From Myxococcota bacterium (lineage in GTDB: Bacteria > Myxococcota_A > UBA796 > UBA2385): a stretch of DNA of 64,000 nt. The DNA lies in contig JBIJDH010000005.1 of assembly GCA_044344255.1 (NCBI GenBank), positions 224,001 to 288,000 of the forward strand. Direction: 5' to 3'. Positions 53,000 through 64,000 of this stretch are shown piece after piece; position 1 is the first letter of the stretch, and each line of letters starts with the position of its first letter. The notes under the pieces were generated by a model. The model was not told the DNA's origin, did not search any database, and saw nothing but the letters and a program-made list of their open reading frames with translations. The position numbers were made by a program, and so were the translations under genes.

Positions 53000-54397
53000 T
53001 CAGCGCGTGTCCATCGCGGGGGCGGGATCGGCGGGGTTCACGGGCTGGCCGGCGCGCCACACGGCCACGATCTGCTGCGTGGCGCCGATGTCCTCGAGCG
53101 GATCGCCGCGGATGAGCAGCAGGTCGGCCGCCTTGCCCACCTCGACCGTCCCGTACTCGGTGTCGCCGTAGAGGGCGGCGGCCCGGGAGGTCGCGCCCAG
53201 GAGCACGTCGGCGGCGGGCACCCCCATTCGGTGCAGCCAGGCGAGCTCGGCGTGGATCGAGCTGCCTGCGAGGTCGGCCGGCAGCGGGCTGTCGGAGCCG
53301 GCGAGGATGACCACCCCAGCGGCCTGTGCGCGGGCGACGTTGCCCGGCCAGGCCTCCCGCCAGCGGTTGACCTCGCGACCGAAGTCGCCCACGACAGGGG
53401 CCTCTCCGAAGGCGAGGCCGGCACCCCCCTCCATCGTGGCGATGAGCGAGGCGGGGTGCAGCGCCCGGTCGAGCGCGCTCGGCGCCCAATGGCCCAGGGC
53501 GAGCCGGCCGGTGTTGTCATACGCGGCGCCGGTCCAGACCACCGGCACGCGGGCGGCGGCGATGAGCGCGGCCCCCTCGGCCGACAGCTCGCTCGTGAGC
53601 ACGCCGTGGACGAGGGCGTCGGCCCCGGCGGCGATGGCCATCCGGGCGTCCTCCTCGCGGCCGATGTGCACGAAGGCGCGCCGATCGTGGGCGTGGGCGG
53701 CCTTCACGAGGGCGTCGAGGCGGGCCTCGTCGATGTGGGCGGCGCCGGGCGGCAGCGAGTCGCAGATGATCTTGATGGCGTCCGCACCGTCAGCGATGGC
53801 CTGCAGCACGATGCCTTCGGCGTCCTCGGGGCGCTCGATCACCGGCACGAGGCGGCGGACGGCGCTCGACAAGGGCCAGGGCAGCAGGGCCTCGGCGGCG
53901 GGGATGGGGTGGCCTTCGGGGACGGTGATCGGCGAATTGGTGCGGCGCACGCGGGGCCCGAAGTCCTCGCCGCTCGCCAGCTTGGCGAGGGCGCGGTCCT
54001 GCATCCCGGCGGGGCCGCCCATGTCGAAGACGGTGGTGACCCCGGCGGCGAGCCAGGCCTGGAGCGAGTGCCGCGGGTCGGGTGTGGTGAGGGTGCCGGG
54101 CATCGCGACCGGCGCCGTGAGGTGGACGTGCGCGTCGACGAGGCCGGGGAGGAGCGTCAGGCCCGCCCCCTCGATGACCCGGCCCTCCGGTGGGGATTGC
54201 CCGGTCGGCCCCACAGCCGCGATCTTCCCGTCGCGGAGGGTCACGTCTTGGTGCGCGAGCAGCGCAGGACCGGTGGCGGGGAAGACCGAGACGTCGTGGA
54301 CGGTGACGGTCTCGACGGGGCCGAGGGTGACGAGGTCCGGGGCCTTCTTCCCCCCGCAGGCGAGCGCGGTGAGCAGCAGGTAGGCGGGGGTCATCAT
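53000..54397 (-). CDS. Amidohydrolase family lipoprotein
   Basis: LAC lipobox, PGLVDAHVH, GVTT, AGSD, GKAADL. Confidence 0.85.
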   Translation of the reverse strand: MMTPAYLLLTALACGGKKAPDLVTLGPVETVTVHDVSVFPATGPALLAHQDVTLRDGKIAAVGPTGQSPPEGRVIEGAGLTLLPGLVDAHVHLTAPVAMPGTLTTPDPRHSLQAWLAAGVTTVFDMGGPAGMQDRALAKLASGEDFGPRVRRTNSPITVPEGHPIPAAEALLPWPLSSAVRRLVPVIERPEDAEGIVLQAIADGADAIKIICDSLPPGAAHIDEARLDALVKAAHAHDRRAFVHIGREEDARMAIAAGADALVHGVLTSELSAEGAALIAAARVPVVWTGAAYDNTGRLALGHWAPSALDRALHPASLIATMEGGAGLAFGEAPVVGDFGREVNRWREAWPGNVARAQAAGVVILAGSDSPLPADLAGSSIHAELAWLHRMGVPAADVLLGATSRAAALYGDTEYGTVEVGKAADLLLIRGDPLEDIGATQQIVAVWRAGQPVNPADPAPAMDTR

Positions 54398-54638
54398 GTC
54401 GCCAGCTCGCAGCCAGAGAGAGGGTGGGTGTCGCGACGAGCGGGGCGCCCGAGCCCCGCGGGGGGCCGCGGGAGTGGGCCATCAGCGCAGGTTAACGGCG
54501 CTCGGTGGTGCCTTCAAGCGGCCACCGACCTGCCGGCGCTGCGCTGGCGCTCGTGTGGGTCCGCTCGACCGCCGGGCCGTCACCTCGCCCCGCTCGGTTA
54601 TGGCGGTCCGGCCCTCGCCCCTCCTGCCTGAGCCCGCC

Positions 54639-55829
54639 ATGCCCGCCCTCAGCCGCCGCTTCTTCAACACCGCCGGCCCCTGTCGGGCAGAGGATCATTA
54701 CATGCTCCCGCCGCTGCGGCGGCTGCCGGAGCTGCAGCGCCTCGTGGCGGAGCGCCAGTTCTACTCGCTACACGCGGCGCGACAGACTGGAAAGACCACG
54801 GCGATGCTGGCCTTCGCCGAGGAGCTCCGCACGAATGGCGCGGTCGCCCTTCACACATCCCTCGAGACCGCGCGCCAGACCCCCGCCGTCGAGGCGGCTG
54901 AACCGCGTTGGCTTCGAGCGATCTTCGACAGCGCGCGGTGGGCCCTCGTGCCCGGCGAGCGCCCCCCTCCGCTCGCCGAGGTCCTCGGCGGAGAGCCTGG
55001 CACGAGGCTCGGCACCTATCTGAGCGATTGGGCGGCGGCCCTCCACCCTCGCCCGCTGGTGCTCCTGTTCGACGAGGTGGACTGCGTCGAGGGTGAGGCG
55101 ATGGTGAGCCTCCTCGGTCAGCTTCGGGCCGGGTTCTCCCTTCGCCCGAGGGCCTTCCCCTCCTCCATCGCCCTCATCGGCATGCGCGACCCGAAGGACT
55201 ACCTTGTGGAGTCCAAGGGTGGAGCGCCGCCAAACCCCGGCTCCCCCTTCAACATCAAGGCGGCCTCTCTCACGTTGTCGAGCTTCACCCTCGAGGACGT
55301 GGCCGAGCTGTATGGGCAGCACGCGGGCGACACCGGCCAGCCCTTCACCGACGCCGCGATCGATCGGGCCTATCAGCTCAGCCAGGGGCAGCCCTTCCTG
55401 GTCAACGCGCTGGCCTATCACCTGACCCGGGAGCAGCCTGTCCCGACGCCCACCCCGATCACGGCGGCGGACATCGACCGCGCGAAGGAGCACCTCGTCC
55501 GCGCCCGCACCACCCATCTGGACAACCTGTCCCACCGCCTCTACGAGCCACGTGTGGCCGCGATCCTCCGGCCGATCCTGATGGGAGACCCTGTCCCCTC
55601 GGGCCGGGACGAAGACGTCGAATATTCGATTGACCTCGGCCTCATCCGACGGGAGTCGGGCGGCCTCGCGCTGGCGAACCCGATCTATCGGGAGGTGCTG
55701 CCGCGGGCCCTCTCGGCGACCCGGGAGATGTCGCTCGCCGATCCGTGGTGGCCCTGGCGCAGGGCGGGCGGGGGGCTCGATCTCCCCGCCCTGATCGATG
55801 CCCCTTCAGACGACGATCCCGCGGGGTAA
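54639..55829 (+). CDS. P-loop AAA-like ATPase (FFNTAGP family), probably C-terminally truncated
   Basis: RFFNTAGPC, AARQTGKTT, LFDEVD, SPFNIKA, GQPFLVN, NPIYRE; ends abruptly LIDAPSDDDPAG*. Confidence 0.75.
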   Translation: MPALSRRFFNTAGPCRAEDHYMLPPLRRLPELQRLVAERQFYSLHAARQTGKTTAMLAFAEELRTNGAVALHTSLETARQTPAVEAAEPRWLRAIFDSARWALVPGERPPPLAEVLGGEPGTRLGTYLSDWAAALHPRPLVLLFDEVDCVEGEAMVSLLGQLRAGFSLRPRAFPSSIALIGMRDPKDYLVESKGGAPPNPGSPFNIKAASLTLSSFTLEDVAELYGQHAGDTGQPFTDAAIDRAYQLSQGQPFLVNALAYHLTREQPVPTPTPITAADIDRAKEHLVRARTTHLDNLSHRLYEPRVAAILRPILMGDPVPSGRDEDVEYSIDLGLIRRESGGLALANPIYREVLPRALSATREMSLADPWWPWRRAGGGLDLPALIDAPSDDDPAG

Positions 55830-55850
55830 TATGTGGGTATGGAGGTGCCC

Positions 55851-56099
55851 ATGGAGCTCGACCACCGAACCACCATCCTTCTCCCGCCTGGCGTACATCG
55901 GCGGCTCCAGCGCATCGCCGCGCGTCGCGGCACCAGCATGGGGGCCCTCATCCGTGAGGCCATCGAGAAGCAGTACGCGAGCGACGACGTCGAGCTGCGC
56001 CTCGACGCGCTCAAGGCCCTCTCCGAGCTCTCGCTGCCCGTGAGCAGCGTGGAGGGGATGAAGCGGGAGAGCGTCGAGCCGCCGATGGAGCTCCCTTGA
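55851..56099 (+). CDS. RHH/CopG-type antitoxin (VapB-like)
   Basis: RTTILL...SMGALIREAIE; overlaps the PIN gene start; start could be 55833-55851. Confidence 0.8.
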   Translation: MELDHRTTILLPPGVHRRLQRIAARRGTSMGALIREAIEKQYASDDVELRLDALKALSELSLPVSSVEGMKRESVEPPMELP

Positions 56100-56509
56100 T
56101 CCTCATCGACACGAACGTCTTCATGTACGTCGCGGGTCGTGAGCACCCGCACCGGGCGCCGAGCCGGCTCTTCTTGGAGCGCGTGGTGAAGGGTGAGATC
56201 TCCGCGGTCATTGACGCGGAGGTGCTCCAGGAGATCCTCCACCGCTACCGGGCCGTCGGGCGGTGGGAGGATGGGCGACGCGTCTACGACCTCGTCCGGA
56301 CCGTGGTCCCCGACGTGCTCGATGTGGGCGCCGAGATGATAGACCGCGCCCGCGCCCTGATGGAGCAGTACCCTGCGCTCCTTGCCCGGGACGCTGTCCA
56401 TGCGGCGGCGGTGATAGAGATCGGCGCCGAGGCCCTCTGCACCTGGGACAAGGACTTCGCGGTCATCCGCGAGATTCGGGTCGTCCAGCCCACCGAGCTG
56501 CTCGGATAG
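56096..56509 (+). CDS. vapC: PIN-domain toxin
   Basis: ILIDTNV, EVLQE, RDAVHAA, TWDKDF. Confidence 0.9.
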   Translation: MILIDTNVFMYVAGREHPHRAPSRLFLERVVKGEISAVIDAEVLQEILHRYRAVGRWEDGRRVYDLVRTVVPDVLDVGAEMIDRARALMEQYPALLARDAVHAAAVIEIGAEALCTWDKDFAVIREIRVVQPTELLG

Positions 56510-56574: not shown

Positions 56575-56738
56575 GCGTCCCCCTCCGCCGCCGCTGCGGC
56601 GGCACCTCCCCCATAAGATGGGGGAGGATGTTCGAGTTGATTCGATAGGTAGTAGGCGCGTTCGGGTGTGTCGCTCTTCACGATTGTCCTCCCCCATCAT
56701 ATGGGGGAGGTGGCGCTCTGAGCGCCGGAGGGGGACGC
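56575..56738. repeat. Inverted pair of REP-like palindromic elements (56575-56628 and 56685-56738)
   Basis: Each has the stem-loop cctcccccat-NNN-atgggggagg plus a second GC hairpin; the two are near reverse complements. Confidence 0.85.
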
Positions 56739-58025
56739 TGGGAGGCGCCCCGAATCGCGGTGAGTGAGCGTAGTCGCGGCCCGGTATGTAGAGGTAAGAT
56801 CGCGCCCCGGGATCTCTCGGGCCCGATGAGATAGTCTCGGCCGCCGAGGCCCGCACCATGACCGATCGCATCCGCTGGATCCAAGACGGGAGGGCGATGG
56901 ACCTCACGCTGGTCGGCCGCCTCCTCGCGCCCGAGTCGGTGGCGGGAGACGCGCACTGTCGGATTGGCGGTCAGGCGCACCTGTACCGGGTGCGGACGCC
57001 GACGGGCGAGGTCCGCGCGTGTAAGCTCGCGATCGACCCCGAGAACAACAGCCTGCTTCGTCGCGAGCACGACCACTACCAGCGCCTGCACCGGGACAGC
57101 GCGCGGGCCGCGGAGTGGCTGCTCCGCTGCCATGGGCAGGGAGAGCACGGGGGCCGCGCCTTCCTCGTGCTCGACTGGGTCGAGCAGAGCCTGCGGGACC
57201 GCTTCCCGACCGCCTCTGGCGCCCAGAACCTCGCGTCCGGCCCGGGCCCTACCCTCCGGGAGCGCCTCCGCTGGGCGGCGGCGGCCTGTGACACGATCGC
57301 GGCCTTCCACGCCGCAGCGGGCTCGACGATCATCCACCAGGACATCAAGCCGGGGAACTTCCTCGTCGCTGCCGAAGATCCCCCGCGCCTCCTGCTCTCC
57401 GATCTCGCCGGTAGCCGCGGCCTCCTTCGCAAGACCAATGGCCGCTCGACCACGCGCCCCGGCGCGGTGACGGAGGGCTACGCGCCGCCGGAGCTGGAGC
57501 TGCCCCAGGGCGTCCGCCGGCCCACCGTGCAGGTAGACCGCTTCTCACTGGCGGTGACGGTGTACGAGGTCGTGACCGGCCAGCGCCCGCTCAAGGCGGG
57601 CCTCAGCGGGGCCTTCAGCTCGGACGGCAAGCGCCTTCACGAGCTGCACAAGGAGGTGGTGCTGGGGGAGGGTCTGCCGAACGAGGAGGAGGAGGAGTAC
57701 CGGGTGCTCGGTGAGCGGGCCCTCCCCGAGCTGCTGCACATCAAGGGGACGCTGCTCGGCCCGCGCTTCGGGGAGCACCTCGTGCGGGCCTTCGGCGAAG
57801 GAGCCGAGGCCGAGCGGCGGGCGAAGCGCCTCGGCGACAAGCTGAAGGAGGCCCTCGCGGTGTCCCCGGAGGACCGGCGGGTGTCCCCGGACTCGCTGGC
57901 CGATCTCTGTCGGGACCTCGCCGACGCGGTGGGGGTCGAGCCCCCGAAGGTGGTGGAGGCGCCGCGGCCGCGCCCACTGCCGAGGCCGAATCAGGCGGGC
58001 TCAGTGGGGGTGCGCCGGGGGCCGC
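56685..58025 (+). repeat. ~1.34 kb direct repeat, copy 1 (REP + leader + kinase domain)
   Basis: Matches 59218-60558 at offset 2533; ORF translations are identical in several frames; the only differences seen are in REP loops. Confidence 0.95.
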
Positions 58026-59131
58026 CCTCGCCCGTGGAAGGGGCGGCGCCCTCTCCCGTTTCTTTGGATGCCGACGAGACGCCTGCAGCGGGGCCGGAGC
58101 CCCGGGAGTCTACGTGGGTCGCTCCGGAGGAGAGCCCGGCCCCAACACAGCCGCCCACCTATTCACCGCCGCCGCCGCCGCCGCCGCCGCCGGAGAACGC
58201 GCCGCGTCGTCCCTCGAACGACAAAGGTGAGGTGCCGCAAACGCAGGAGGGGCGCCCTGTCGGGGCCTCCGCTTCTGGCATCGGCGGCTCCGCGCTCTTG
58301 GGCGCCCTGGCGGCCTTTGCCGCGGTGGCGGGGTTGATCGTGTGGGCTTTGGGCGCGAGCGCCCCCTCTGGCGCGGAGGGGGACCTCACCTGGGTGACGG
58401 TGCCCGCCGGCGAGGGTGTTATCGGCGATGATGGTACCTTCGACGTGCAAAGCGACGAAAAACCGCGATTCCGGGTGAAGTTTGCGCGGTCTTTCAAGAT
58501 GTTGGAGACGGAGGTCACTAACCGACAGTACGCGGCGAAGAACCCAGACCACAGCCCGGTGGATGACAAGCCTGTCGTCAGTGTCAATTGGAATGATGCC
58601 AGGGCGTATTGTGCCGCGATTGGCGCGAGGCTGCCGACGGAGCTCGAGTGGGAGTTCGCCGTGCGGGCCGGCGGTGAGGGCGCGTACGGCCTCGGCGCAG
58701 AGGGCGTAGAGGTTACGGAGACCAACCTCCAGAGCTACGCTTGGTTGACGACCAACTCTGGCTAGAGGGTGCACGATGTGAGGCAGAAGAAGGCCAACGC
58801 CTGGGGCCTCTATGACCTCTGGGGTAACGTCTGGGAGTGGGTTGAGGATGGGTACTCGAAAAGAGCCTGGGCGGCGCTGTCGGCCGCAGGGACGTTGTTG
58901 ACCACTGGAGCGCGCTTGGTGACAGATCCACGCGTTGTTGACACGATTGATGACGAGGATGCGAACACGCCCCCCGCCCTCCGTGTCTTCCGCGGGGGCT
59001 CCGCCTGGTTCGGGCCCACATGGTTGCGCTCAGGGTACCGGCGCTGGGACGCGCCCGCGGTCTCGGACGCGAACCTCGGTTTTCGTTGCGTCTCGGCCCC
59101 CGCGCCCCGGCCCTTGAACCTTGCGCCTTGA
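56858..59131 (+). pseudogene. Ser/Thr kinase, Pro-rich linker, TM, FGE-sulfatase/CLec protein, copy 1, with in-frame TAG at 58763-58765
   Basis: [43 protein letters not shown]; the frame continues after TAG with [27 protein letters not shown]. Confidence 0.8.
58166..58192 (+). repeat. (CCG)9 microsatellite encoding poly-Pro
   Basis: Read directly; absent from the copy 2 linker. Confidence 0.85.
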
Positions 59132-59217
59132 TCCTTGTGGTCTGGCCGGCAGAATGCGTACAGCGCTCGCGGAAATTGTCATGAAGGGTCGGCCGGGGGG
59201 ATCCCTGCGGCTGTCCC

Positions 59218-60558
59218 TGTCCTCCCCCATCTTATGGGGGAGGTGGCGCTTTTAGCGCCGGAGGGGGACGCTGGGAGGCGCCCCGAATCGCGGTGAGTGA
59301 GCGTAGTCGCGGCCCGGTATGTAGAGGTAAGATCGCGCCCCGGGATCTCTCGGGCCCGATGAGATAGTCTCGGCCGCCGAGGCCCGCACCATGACCGATC
59401 GCATCCGCTGGATCCAAGACGGGAGGGCGATGGACCTCACGCTGGTCGGCCGCCTCCTCGCGCCCGAGTCGGTGGCGGGAGACGCGCACTGTCGGATTGG
59501 CGGTCAGGCGCACCTGTACCGGGTGCGGACGCCGACGGGCGAGGTCCGCGCGTGTAAGCTCGCGATCGACCCCGAGAACAACAGCCTGCTTCGTCGCGAG
59601 CACGACCACTACCAGCGCCTGCACCGGGACAGCGCGCGGGCCGCGGAGTGGCTGCTCCGCTGCCATGGGCAGGGAGAGCACGGGGGCCGCGCCTTCCTCG
59701 TGCTCGACTGGGTCGAGCAGAGCCTGCGGGACCGCTTCCCGACCGCCTCTGGCGCCCAGAACCTCGCGTCCGGCCCGGGCCCTACCCTCCGGGAGCGCCT
59801 CCGCTGGGCGGCGGCGGCCTGTGACACGATCGCGGCCTTCCACGCCGCAGCGGGCTCGACGATCATCCACCAGGACATCAAGCCGGGGAACTTCCTCGTC
59901 GCTGCCGAAGATCCCCCGCGCCTCCTGCTCTCCGATCTCGCCGGTAGCCGCGGCCTCCTTCGCAAGACCAATGGCCGCTCGACCACGCGCCCCGGCGCGG
60001 TGACGGAGGGCTACGCGCCGCCGGAGCTGGAGCTGCCCCAGGGCGTCCGCCGGCCCACCGTGCAGGTAGACCGCTTCTCACTGGCGGTGACGGTGTACGA
60101 GGTCGTGACCGGCCAGCGCCCGCTCAAGGCGGGCCTCAGCGGGGCCTTCAGCTCGGACGGCAAGCGCCTTCACGAGCTGCACAAGGAGGTGGTGCTGGGG
60201 GAGGGTCTGCCGAACGAGGAGGAGGAGGAGTACCGGGTGCTCGGTGAGCGGGCCCTCCCCGAGCTGCTGCACATCAAGGGGACGCTGCTCGGCCCGCGCT
60301 TCGGGGAGCACCTCGTGCGGGCCTTCGGCGAAGGAGCCGAGGCCGAGCGGCGGGCGAAGCGCCTCGGCGACAAGCTGAAGGAGGCCCTCGCGGTGTCCCC
60401 GGAGGACCGGCGGGTGTCCCCGGACTCGCTGGCCGATCTCTGTCGGGACCTCGCCGACGCGGTGGGGGTCGAGCCCCCGAAGGTGGTGGAGGCGCCGCGG
60501 CCGCGCCCACTGCCGAGGCCGAATCAGGCGGGCTCAGTGGGGGTGCGCCGGGGGCCGC
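59218..60558 (+). repeat. ~1.34 kb direct repeat, copy 2
   Basis: Matches 56685-58025. Confidence 0.95.
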
Positions 60559-61720
60559 GTCGCCGGTCGCGGAGGCGCCGTTACCCCGGTCGCCGGTGTC
60601 TCCCGGAGTCGCCGCGGCGCCAACTGTGGGGCCAGAGCCGCAGGATTCCGCGTGGGTCGCGCCGGAGGAGAGCCCGACCCCCAGGCGACCGCCCGCCGAG
60701 GCGCCGTCGCCTCCCCGTCCGCGCAAGGAAGCGGTCCGGGGCGTACCAAAGACTCCGCCTCGTGCCTTGCCGGACGCCAAGGCGGGGCGGTCCAGTGGCC
60801 TTCCTTGGATGGCAGCCCTCGTCGGCCTGGTGCTCGGGTCAGTGTCGATCATCGGCTGCCTTGGGTTTGTCGGCAGGCAATTGGAGGGCCTATTTGAAGC
60901 GACTGGTGATGCCATCGACCCCAGGCCCGTCTCGTTGGGGAGCGAGGTCCCCCCCTCCGTTGCGGTGGGGAACCTCACCTGGGTGACCGTACCCGCGAGC
61001 GAGGGTGTCATCGGCGATGATGGTACCTCCAACGTGGAAAGCGACGAGAAGCCCCGCTTCCGGGTGAGGTTCACACGGTCCTTCCAGATGCTGGAGACGG
61101 AGGTCACCAACCGACAGTACGCGGCCAAGAACAGCGGCCACAGCCCTGTCAATGACAAGCCTGTCGTCAAGGTCAACTGGAGTGACGCCCAGACGTACTG
61201 TGCCGCGATTGGCGCGAGGCTGCCGACGGAGCTCGAGTGGGAATACGCCGCGCGGGCCGGCGGCGAGGGCGCTTACGGCCTCGGCGCAGGGGGCGTGGAG
61301 GTCACCGAGGCCAACCTTCAGAGCTACGCCTGGTTGACGACCAATTCTGGCGACACAGTGCGGGATGTGAGGCAGAGGGAGCCCAACGCTTGGGGCCTCT
61401 ACGACCTCTGGGGAAACGTCTGGGAGTGGGTGGAGGATGGGTACTCGGGCGAGGCCTGGGCGGCGCTGTCCGCCTCCGGGACCTTGTTGACCAGCGGTGC
61501 CCGTTTGGTGACAGATCCGGGCTTCGTGGCTACGATTGGTGACAATGGTGCGAACACTCCCCCTTCTCACCGTGTATTCCGTGGGGGTTCCGCGTGGGGC
61601 GGGCCCAAGTGGTTGCGCTCGGGCGACCGGCTCAGGAACGAGTCCACGTCCTCGGGCGTGCTCCTCGGTTTTCGTTGCGTTTTGGCCGCTGCGCCCCAGC
61701 CCTTGAACCTTGCGCCTTGA
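59391..61720 (+). pseudogene. Ser/Thr kinase, linker, TM, FGE-sulfatase/CLec protein, copy 2, frameshifted near 60558
   Basis: Kinase ORF 59391-60986 and TM/FGE ORF 60596-61720 are in different frames; adding one base at 60558-60559 joins them. Confidence 0.8.
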
Positions 61721-61815
61721 TCCTTGGTGTAGGGGTTGTCCGGCGGGCTGAACGCGCGCAGCGCTCGCGGAAATTGTCGTGGATGGTCGTCCGGAAGGAC
61801 CTTCGTAGCTTGCTC

Positions 61816-62126: not shown

Positions 62127-63035
62127 ATGTCTGATTCGCTCCACGATCCGGCCCATAGCTCCATCCTCGACAGCGTCCTCGGCGCCATCCCGGGGCTGGG
62201 CGGCGCCTCCGAGCGGGAGGAGGCCCGCGCGGAGGCGCAGGCCATGCTCGCGGAGCTGCGGGCCGAGCGGGCCCTCATCGCCCACGACGCCGCGGCCGCG
62301 CGGGCGGCCATCGAGGCGGACACGCTGGCGGCGAAGGCGGAGCTCCAGGCGGAGGCGGAGGCCGCTCGGCAGCTCATCGAGGCGGAGCGGGTCGCCGTCA
62401 CGGCGGAGCTCAACCAGGCTCGGGTCTCCTTTGAGCACGAGCGCGAGCAGGCCCTCGCGGCGCTGCACCACGAGCGCGCCGCCCTCGAGCACAAGGCCGA
62501 GCAGATCGAGCAGCGGGCGACCGAGCTCGAGCAGCGCGGCGCGCACTTTGTGGAAGAGGCGGAGGCGGCGTCCACGCGCCTCCATGAGCAGTCCGAGGCC
62601 GCCCTCCGCAGCGCCGCCGAGCACCTCGATCAGGCCGCCGCGCAGGCCGAGGGGCGCTTGCGGCAGGAGGCCGAGTCAGCGGGGCGTGACCTCGAGGGGC
62701 GGCTGCGGGACCACCTCCACGCGCTCGAGTCCGAGGCGCGCGGGCAGCTCGACCGCCTGGAGCTCGCCGCAGACCAGGGGCGTGGCCTCTTCGAGCGGGT
62801 GGGAGAGGAGCTCCGCGACCGCCTCCACGGCGAGGCGGAGGGCGGCCTCCACCTCCTCCGCGATGGGCACCGACAGGGCAAGGACGAGCTCGACCAGGAG
62901 CGCGGTCGTCTGCGTGACCAGGTCTTCAACCTGCGCGAGGCGGTGCGCGAGGTCGCCGAGCACCTTGTGGCGCAGGTGCCGGTCGTCGGGCACGCGCTCG
63001 CCTCAGCGGCGCACAACATCCACCTGGACGCCTGA
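62127..63035 (+). CDS. Ala/Glu/His-rich coiled-coil protein
   Basis: gggagg RBS; long helical repeat; short amphipathic ends (LGAIPGLG, AQVPVVG). Confidence 0.75.
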   Translation: MSDSLHDPAHSSILDSVLGAIPGLGGASEREEARAEAQAMLAELRAERALIAHDAAAARAAIEADTLAAKAELQAEAEAARQLIEAERVAVTAELNQARVSFEHEREQALAALHHERAALEHKAEQIEQRATELEQRGAHFVEEAEAASTRLHEQSEAALRSAAEHLDQAAAQAEGRLRQEAESAGRDLEGRLRDHLHALESEARGQLDRLELAADQGRGLFERVGEELRDRLHGEAEGGLHLLRDGHRQGKDELDQERGRLRDQVFNLREAVREVAEHLVAQVPVVGHALASAAHNIHLDA

Positions 63036-63036
63036 C

Positions 63037-64000
63037 ATGCCGCTGTCTGCAAAGAGCCAGCCCATCCAGTCGGCGGCCCGCACCCTGCTCGGTCGATTGG
63101 CGGGGAAGGCGCGGCCCCAGGGGGTGGTCGCCCTCTCGGAGGCGACAGAGGACGCCACCGTGGAGCGGGCCCAGGGCCGGGCTCGGAGCGAGATCGAGGT
63201 GATCCGACGGGAGCTCGTGGCGCGGAGAGAGGAGGTGGAGCGGGAGCAGGGGCGGCGAGAGGTCGCGCTCGGCGCGGCTCAGTCCGAGCTGGAGCTCGCC
63301 ACCCGACAGGCCCAGGCGGGGCGAGACACAGACGCCCTGCTCCAGCGCTTTGACCCCGGCCGCCGCATCGACGAGCTGCGGCAGGCCCTACTCCGCGACC
63401 GCCTCGACCGAGAGCTGCGCGGCCTCGTCCGCCTCACCGAGCGGACCGAGGGCGATCACCTCGTCTATTCACTCGATCCGGCCGTCGCCCCAGCGGTCGC
63501 GGGCCTGCTCGGTCAGGCCTTCGTCGACGGCCCCGACAGCTGGGCCCGCGTGGCGGCCGAGAGCCTCAACGCAGATCTCGGCATCCAGCTCCACCAGCAA
63601 GGGATGGGCCTCGAGCACGACGTCGAGACCCCGCTGCGGCCCGACAGCAGCCTGCCCCCAGAGCTGCGCTTCGGGCCGCCGGAGGGTGAGGGCCGCCCGT
63701 GGTGGCGAGAGCACCAATTGCCGCCGATGGAGCGGCGTCGGCCCATCCAGGCGCTGTGGCGGGAGGTTCTCTCCACGCTCCGCACGCAGACCTTCCTCGT
63801 CGCCAGCCTCGTCGGGCTCGCCCTGTCCAACGTGAAGTCCGGCACAGACGCGGCGATCGGTCGGGGTGGGATCTTCTTCGGCACCGCCCTCGCGATCCTG
63901 CCCGTGGTCATCTTGGAGACCGGCCGGCAGCGGCGGCAGCATGTCCTCCAGCAGCGAGAGGAGGTGGAGAAGCAGGTCACCGCCGAGCTCATCGCTTGGG
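63037..64000 (+). CDS. Coiled-coil protein with a two-helix hydrophobic segment, runs off the right edge
   Basis: Manual translation MPLSAKSQPIQ... stays open to the end; FLVASLVGLAL and GIFFGTALAILPVVIL; absent from the ORF track because no stop is in the window. Confidence 0.7.
   Translation, partial: MPLSAKSQPIQSAARTLLGRLAGKARPQGVVALSEATEDATVERAQGRARSEIEVIRRELVARREEVEREQGRREVALGAAQSELELATRQAQAGRDTDALLQRFDPGRRIDELRQALLRDRLDRELRGLVRLTERTEGDHLVYSLDPAVAPAVAGLLGQAFVDGPDSWARVAAESLNADLGIQLHQQGMGLEHDVETPLRPDSSLPPELRFGPPEGEGRPWWREHQLPPMERRRPIQALWREVLSTLRTQTFLVASLVGLALSNVKSGTDAAIGRGGIFFGTALAILPVVILETGRQRRQHVLQQREEVEKQVTAELIAW

Follow-up and report, generated by a model that had tools for sequence, protein, structure and literature searches.

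Broken tandem kinase–lectin genes in a Myxococcota bacterium as probable relics of diversity-generating retroelement targets

We analysed a 64,000-nt stretch of the genome of a Myxococcota bacterium (NCBI assembly GCA_044344255.1, contig JBIJDH010000005.1, positions 224,001 to 288,000 of the forward strand). This whole stretch is called the window, and coordinates given without a contig name are counted from its first letter. Toward its end lie two tandem genes, both on the + strand, that join a Ser/Thr kinase to a transmembrane helix and a C-terminal C-type lectin (CLec) domain of the formylglycine-generating enzyme (FGE) type. Both genes are broken, and the last ~22 codons of their CLec domains were probably written in the past by a diversity-generating retroelement (DGR), a system that mutates template adenines. 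The retroelement was likely lost afterward, leaving the two copies as fixed relics.

Anatomy of the tandem gene pair

Gene 1 (56858..59131) encodes a Ser/Thr kinase (Pkinase, 1e-10), a Pro-rich linker, a predicted transmembrane helix (58295..58351, residues 480-498; hydropathy 2.4) and an FGE-type CLec domain (FGE-sulfatase, 1.5e-38), within which the frame is interrupted by an in-frame TAG (58763..58765). This TAG lies 5′ of the variable segment (59009..59074), which would therefore stay untranslated. In gene 2, the kinase frame (59391..60986, 531 amino acids) is out of frame with the remainder, which lies at 60596..61720 (linker, transmembrane helix at ~60815-60871 and CLec; 374 amino acids from a GTG start, with no evident ribosome-binding site). 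The second variable segment (61598..61663) lies within this frame. The frameshift is located near 60559, at the end of a 1305-bp tract of upstream region and kinase (56721..58025) that is identical to 59254-60558. Neither gene thus holds, in one reading frame, the kinase, transmembrane helix and extracytoplasmic domain of a Hanks-type receptor Ser/Thr kinase: translation of gene 1 ends within its CLec domain, and the frameshift of gene 2 precedes the transmembrane helix. A previous sequence-only reading of this DNA had proposed membrane receptor kinases and mentions neither the breaks nor the 1305-bp identity; the domains are present, but no whole receptor is encoded by either gene.

The putative kinase carries the catalytic-loop motif HQDIKPGN, with DLA where DFG would stand. 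Neither copy has a Cys in the stretch from RGGS to LGFR, and the catalytic cysteine pair that FGE carries after RGGS (mutant names stand among the structure matches) is thus lacking. An AlphaFold model of the gene 2 CLec domain (pLDDT 91.6) matches the folds of FGE and TvpA. TvpA of Treponema denticola is a lipoprotein with an active DGR. It is an FGE-type CLec DGR target and the best sequence match of the window CLec domain in the PDB (2y3c, E 1.2e-14), with the RGGS-LGFR segment aligned and a fold TM score of 0.69. Unlike the window genes, TvpA has no kinase.

The TAG and both variable segments are found, with no other letters, in the contigs of four lake metagenome runs, one of which may come from the source sample. 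One metagenome contig spans the gene 2 frameshift ungapped, and a further three start ~30 bases ahead of it. Because these contigs reproduce the TAG, the frameshift and the arrangement, we consider the breaks and the tandem real. An assembly artefact was rejected, since contigs of run X3 join the gene 1 CLec domain to the second kinase copy and depth over the kinase tract in run X16 is about twice that of its flanks (10.4 vs 2.5-6.4). A contig of run X5 that skips gene 1 is no evidence for its deletion, since the tract fits both places. Read-through of the TAG was also rejected: it occurs in 1 of 48 FGE matches, and no tRNA with a CTA anticodon was listed. A programmed frameshift was likewise rejected for gene 2, where inspection by eye showed a run of five G but no canonical slippery heptamer.

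The variable segments differ mainly at template adenines

The segments compared are the final 22 codons preceding LGFR in the two CLec domains, bounded by GGSAW and LGFR. A codon-by-codon comparison reproduced the list of the sequence-only reading exactly, with 13 of the 22 codons changing the amino acid and 12 of these keeping the third base; two changes within the segment pair are synonymous. Replacements are strongly enriched here relative to the remaining ungapped CLec alignment (13/22 vs 39/226, Fisher p 4.4e-5), and their clustering gave p 0.003 in a scan-corrected permutation of the best 22-codon window over 20,000 shuffles. At the DNA level, the CLec halves of the two genes are 82% identical. 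Third-base retention, which had been read as a DGR signature, holds as a count but has little force, because 24 of the 39 replacements elsewhere keep the third base too (p 0.044). Codons in which positions 1 and 2 were both replaced make up 3 of 22 in the segment and 4 of 226 elsewhere (p 0.017), which favours writing by a DGR.

When 40 relatives were searched at the protein level, two homologues came up, in genomes G025 and G003. The G025 homologue, from the same order, is a target of a complete DGR that consists of a helix-turn-helix gene, an avd-like gene, the template, a reverse transcriptase (RT) gene and a second target; this locus was found by the protein search and not by a pattern of the variable repeat (VR). 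Base differences between the window segments fall on adenines of the G025 template at 16 of 19 positions, with 26 of 66 sites being A (p 3e-6, neighbouring sites not being independent), and at 15 of 16 when codon positions 1 and 2 are considered. Furthermore, all seven variable codon pairs at AAC sites end in C in both copies, compared with a background of 40% (165/416). Against four further templates, in which 21 of 66 sites are A, 12-13 of the 19 differences fall on adenines; these templates were found by a pattern built on the window VRs, which makes the comparison partly circular. The template guessed in the sequence-only reading came near real ones, as the template of G072 has an ACG AAC TCG AAC stretch, at positions where the search pattern fixed just one base per codon.

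The linkers of genes 1 and 2 are homologous. Both genes were hence already kinase fusions when they split, and the excess changes arose on kinase-fused genes.

Several observations weigh against DGR authorship of these differences. Even in the best template, 3 of the 19 differences lie off adenines; the 3′ ends of the two segments differ at non-A sites, so that the IMH (initiation of mutagenic homing) site is not intact; and the excess of transversions is not significant (10/16 in the segment vs 17/44 elsewhere, p 0.14). C-ending codons at AAC sites (7/8 per copy) are not unique to the pair, as at least 7 occur in 9 of 35 CLec ends of this genome. A cognate template was found nowhere: five related templates match 29-36 of 40-45 non-A sites (72-80%). 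As template adenines mark ligand-site codons, ordinary selection diverging these codons without a DGR could mimic part of the pattern. One publication sets an A-only mismatch criterion for non-adjacent targets (PMC5758913, in the part available to us), and by this measure the window pair falls outside.

The differences off adenines, the diverged 3′ ends and the non-significant transversion excess, together with the modest p-value of third-base retention and silent sites that are not homogenised (see below), fit an alternative in which a single ancestor alone was a DGR target and the element was lost before the duplication; ordinary mutation, with selection relaxed or positive, would then have driven the ligand codons apart. 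The ancestry marks described in the next section likewise show descent and not the author of the differences. The double replacements at positions 1 and 2, the C-ending of all seven variable AAC-site pairs and the 15 of 16 position-1/2 differences on G025 template adenines speak against this scenario, which we regard as unlikely. That the segment differences were authored by a DGR is, in our judgment, quite probable.

The CLec domains nest among verified DGR targets

In a comparison of 147 CLec domains without the VR, the closest to the window pair were the G003 homologue (51-54% identity) and the verified G025 target (46-49%), with the next at 43% or less. The tree without the VR shows the nesting ((((gene 1, gene 2), G003), G025 target), G072 target), with supports of 100/93, 100/98, 99/91 and 100/95. 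This tree holds 53 rows chosen from a 147-row tree that gives the same order; loci duplicating others, domains shorter than 150 residues and FGE matches of this genome without an RGG...GFR end (9/47) were omitted from trees and counts. In a GTDB protein scan, the matches listed were mostly domains at 30-42% identity.

The G003 homologue (L037, G003:C1109:1410-3844, - strand) is the sole other kinase-transmembrane-CLec homologue found, the spread of this fusion being judged from 154 genomes of the order. Like gene 2, it has a frameshift at or close to five consecutive G; its catalytic loop reads HPNIQPAN, its segment is two codons shorter, and it lacks the repeat tract described below. All three known copies of this architecture are therefore broken. 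No DGR RT was found in G003 with one query (genome 88% complete). Six other loci of the window kinase family have no CLec domain and other C-terminal ends instead, which makes it likely that the CLec domain was grafted onto the kinase.

At the end of each gene stand about four copies of CCTTG, spaced 6-7 bases apart (59111..59137 and 61700..61726), and after them the remnant of a GC hairpin whose loop has 3 nt. Behind gene 2, this is a 4-bp GC hairpin with a GCA loop (61754..61764), shorter than the 8-bp hairpin with a GAA loop behind the G025 targets. In gene 1, the hairpin is lost, and what we recognize by eye (59156..59166; hairpin score 0) has a mismatched stem and a loop that is no longer GNA. 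With a score devised for the ~7-nt repeats, values of at least 4 were reached by 4 of 38 CLec ends of this genome (the window pair, C24 and C28) vs 8 of 3099 generic gene ends. Values of at least 3 were found in 11 of 27 verified VRs and in none of 20 template flanks, and 10 of 27 verified VRs of related DGRs have a GC-rich hairpin on their 3′ side. We also observed ~7-nt repeats (CCTTGA or CCTTTT type) followed by a GC hairpin with a GNA triloop 3′ of the VRs in L036, L055, L065, L172-L174, L088 and L125, an arrangement missing after all 20 templates.

Two qualifications count against this mark. Of 86 CLec genes that lack a local template, 15 also score at least 3, and the score was devised after the sequences had been seen, with a first version reaching 3 in 1 of 10 template-verified GTDB VRs before it was widened.

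The pair might simply represent ordinary FGE-domain kinase paralogues without any DGR history, given that such genes are numerous in this genome (48 FGE matches), which has no DGR machinery. Of the 47 FGE frames, 19 have a kinase motif, most of them in one clade without transmembrane helices, and only two have a transmembrane helix after the kinase. The window pair stands outside this main kinase-FGE clade and inside the clade of verified targets; it carries the repeat tract, which at score 3 is absent from 32 of 38 CLec ends of this genome; and the concentration of differences on adenines has a p of 3e-6. Adenines, tract and tree largely refute this explanation, which we consider extremely improbable, and DGR ancestry of the window pair appears almost certain.

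No DGR machinery in the assembly

The assembly comprises 8.18 Mb in 83 contigs and is 95% complete, with a smallest contig of 2530 bp. It contains no DGR-type RT: RVT_1 gave one match, a type XIII retron. Neither tblastn with DGR RTs of relatives nor HMMs built from 15 and from 7 related DGR RTs found anything in the assembly beyond the retron, the next best matches having E-values of 0.042 and 0.3. For avd, PF22296 had no matches at E 1, and tblastn with frames from the avd regions of relatives detected no avd. An A-tolerant genome-wide scan found no template for either window segment; with the 38 CLec ends of this genome as queries, the matches listed were just other CLec ends or A-rich noise, and a consensus template pattern had no matches in the genome. 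A pattern scan of metagenomes gave 22 stretches, none of them a close relative or a cognate template.

Several candidates for a missing component were examined and rejected. The retron (G000 C2:241259-248515, L002), whose RT at C2:247508 is the genome's only one, is of type XIII with SWIM and WGR partner genes and was dismissed as the mutator. An RT-like scrap of 30 residues near the end of C15 (E 0.32) is a chance match, as it disappears with a subfamily profile and has no support at the DNA level; a truncated TIR-like frame, noted by eye on G000 C15 at ~202900-203150, abuts it on the opposite strand. A prophage-borne template was rejected, as the patterns of both VR families had no viral matches.

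The sequence-only reading had made its case depend on a DGR RT or template in this genome or close relatives and on mismatches concentrated at adenines. RT and template are absent from the assembly; among 21 family genomes, four have DGR-type RTs, G002 on six contigs, and the mismatches do concentrate on adenines. Next to several of the family RTs, we saw template/VR pairs whose mismatches lie almost all at A. The order has many complete or near-complete DGRs, including L036 (G025:C77), L171 (G072:C131) and L038-L043 (G002), with further loci in G019 (L047), G011 (L035), G036 (L028) and G040 (L045). Their targets include MoxR-adjacent genes, NACHT-like genes and long N-terminal fusions.

Rewriting has probably ceased at the window pair

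Retrohoming from one template erases silent differences within the VR. In the window pair, silent differences amount to 7 of 27 in the template-homologous span (~58982-59108 in gene 1) vs 40 of 163 upstream, and there is no homogenisation; in the verified G025 pair, 0 of 29 silent sites differ in the VR. Any rewriting therefore probably stopped early after the duplication. The contigs of all four lake runs showed no alternative letters at either VR, and contigs drop rare variants. Depth over each window VR equals a single contig in all four runs, so that no variant or template contig of at least 80% likeness was found there; a template could fall under 80%. The diversity check proposed for reads, made here on contigs, would leave rare alleles hidden. 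The previous description as remote or former targets is upheld for "former"; remote targets with hypervariable sites today are not supported, as we found no machinery in the assembly, no homogenisation, no variants in the contigs of the four runs and no gene of the two that encodes a complete receptor.

It might nonetheless be argued that the genes are current remote targets of a cassette that is present in the organism and was dropped from the assembly, as VR/template repeats break contigs. With 95% completeness and no contig below 2.5 kb, a small cassette may indeed be missing, which counts against our reading of a lost element. Several CLec genes lie at contig ends, that on C8 stopping just before its VR; DGR RTs exist in the family, as stated; and a second pair of CLec genes, on C24 and C28, looks recently homogenised (see below). 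One template, however, cannot match both window VRs at non-A sites, single-contig depth was found over each of them in all four runs and likewise over the middle of the C28 VR, both genes are broken and their hairpins have decayed. We thus judge this explanation to be very unlikely, and DGR activity at the window pair today to be correspondingly improbable.

A second, fresher pair of orphan targets

The second orphan pair consists of G000 C24:798-1550 (- strand, L073) and C28:451-1158 (+ strand, L072). Of 126 VR bases, 23 differ between the two; 22 of these lie at codon positions 1-2, and, depending on which of four related templates is taken, 20-22 coincide with an adenine. Silent differences are found at 1 of 30 sites vs 17 of 103 upstream (p 0.07). 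The 3′ flanks are near-identical and contain the repeat tract; template and RT are absent from the assembly. This pair is a cleaner and fresher case of orphan targets than the window pair. It groups with verified targets of G002 and G019, and a single clade for the seven domains of this genome tested was rejected (p-AU 0.0002). In three runs, the C24 and C28 versions reappear in identical or almost identical form; X2 and X5 contain other variants, and the middle of the VRs was covered by no template contig. Other CLec genes of this genome are located at the C8 end, at C9:18915-19670 and at C20:34530-35249.

Genomic neighbourhood

Palindromes resembling repetitive extragenic palindromic sequences flank the duplicated tract (56605-56710, with copies at 56605 and 56688, and 59221..59243 immediately 5′ of its second copy); a pattern search found 20 exact copies genome-wide. 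Related repeats at the C15 and C24 ends adjoin a short gene that we take to encode an endonuclease-like protein. Directly 5′ of the tandem (54396-56509) lies an AAA_35-like ATPase gene, seemingly cut short, and then a pair of ribbon-helix-helix antitoxin and PIN toxin genes. Downstream (62127-64000), two frames encode Ala/Glu-rich, coiled-coil-like proteins without a Pfam match.

Comparison with known systems

Cyanobacterial DGR targets, remote targets and paralogues have been described as Ser/Thr kinases with a C-terminal CLec domain, mostly predicted to be cytosolic, and remote targets that combine kinase, TPR and transmembrane regions appear in one supplementary row (PMC7517822, in the parts available to us). 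The kind of system reported here is therefore already known. The window genes share with these the fusion of a kinase to a terminal CLec domain, the VR-like 3′ end and the location away from any cassette; unlike them, the verified targets nearest to them by CLec kinship are in their own order, the assembly lacks RT and template, and both copies are broken. The clade 5 DGRs of multicellular bacteria include degenerate loci in Thiohalocapsa PB-PSB1 and, in some cases, periplasmic CLec sensors (PMC10907252, accessible portion). CLec sensor targets, some with periplasmic CLec domains, loci without RT or template and nearby repeat arrays are common to both. In contrast to the degenerate Thiohalocapsa loci, which according to the same portion continue to be diversified, either in trans or within structural variants, we found no working copy or variation for the window pair.

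The target site of Bordetella phage BPP-1 comprises the IMH and a required downstream GC hairpin with a GRNA tetraloop 4-34 bp away (PMC3240598, as far as the text was accessible). A GC-rich hairpin also lies 3′ of verified VRs of the related DGRs, with a remnant behind gene 2, but the related DGRs have a 3-nt GNA loop and intervening 7-nt repeats, and the window stem is 4 bp or broken. In the accessible parts of PMC3240598, PMC5758913, PMC8867640, PMC11661182 and bioRxiv 2024.11.15.621889, no such 7-nt tract was found, a weak test of whether tract or triloop is in print. Within the sources that a literature search made available, there was nothing specific on such targets or DGRs in this order.

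Proposed history and implications

A plausible history would begin in the G025/G072 DGR lineage, one of whose CLec target modules would have been grafted onto a lineage-specific membrane kinase. The resulting gene may then have been duplicated, with at least one copy rewritten from a template soon after. Once the cassette was lost, drift would have set in at silent sites, at the end that resembles an IMH and in the hairpin. The identity of the first 1305 bp could finally stem from a recent copying event, at whose junction gene 2 would have fallen out of frame. In the intact state, a cytoplasmic Ser/Thr kinase is predicted to have been switched by ligand at a periplasmic, diversified CLec site, plausibly as a receptor sensing foreign surface molecules.

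More tentatively, the lineage might have had DGR-diversified transmembrane receptor kinases, a repertoire of somatically varied receptors outside cyanobacteria, and might preserve a graded fossil series from at least two DGR lineages (C24/C28 fresh; C9 and the window pair older), each with the 7-nt tract as a targeting signal that outlasted the machinery and with a cassette perhaps circulating in part of the population. We see this larger picture as possible, though doubtful.

Biologically, the window pair has modest weight: its two members are relics, fixed and pseudogene-like, and G002, G025 and G072 with their complete DGRs offer better objects of study. The pair extends kinase-transmembrane-CLec targets and DGRs to this order. 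It also indicates that a DGR history can be read in a genome without the element through three independent marks, namely differences at adenine sites, domain ancestry and the 3′ repeat tract, and that silent-site homogenisation orders such relics by age.

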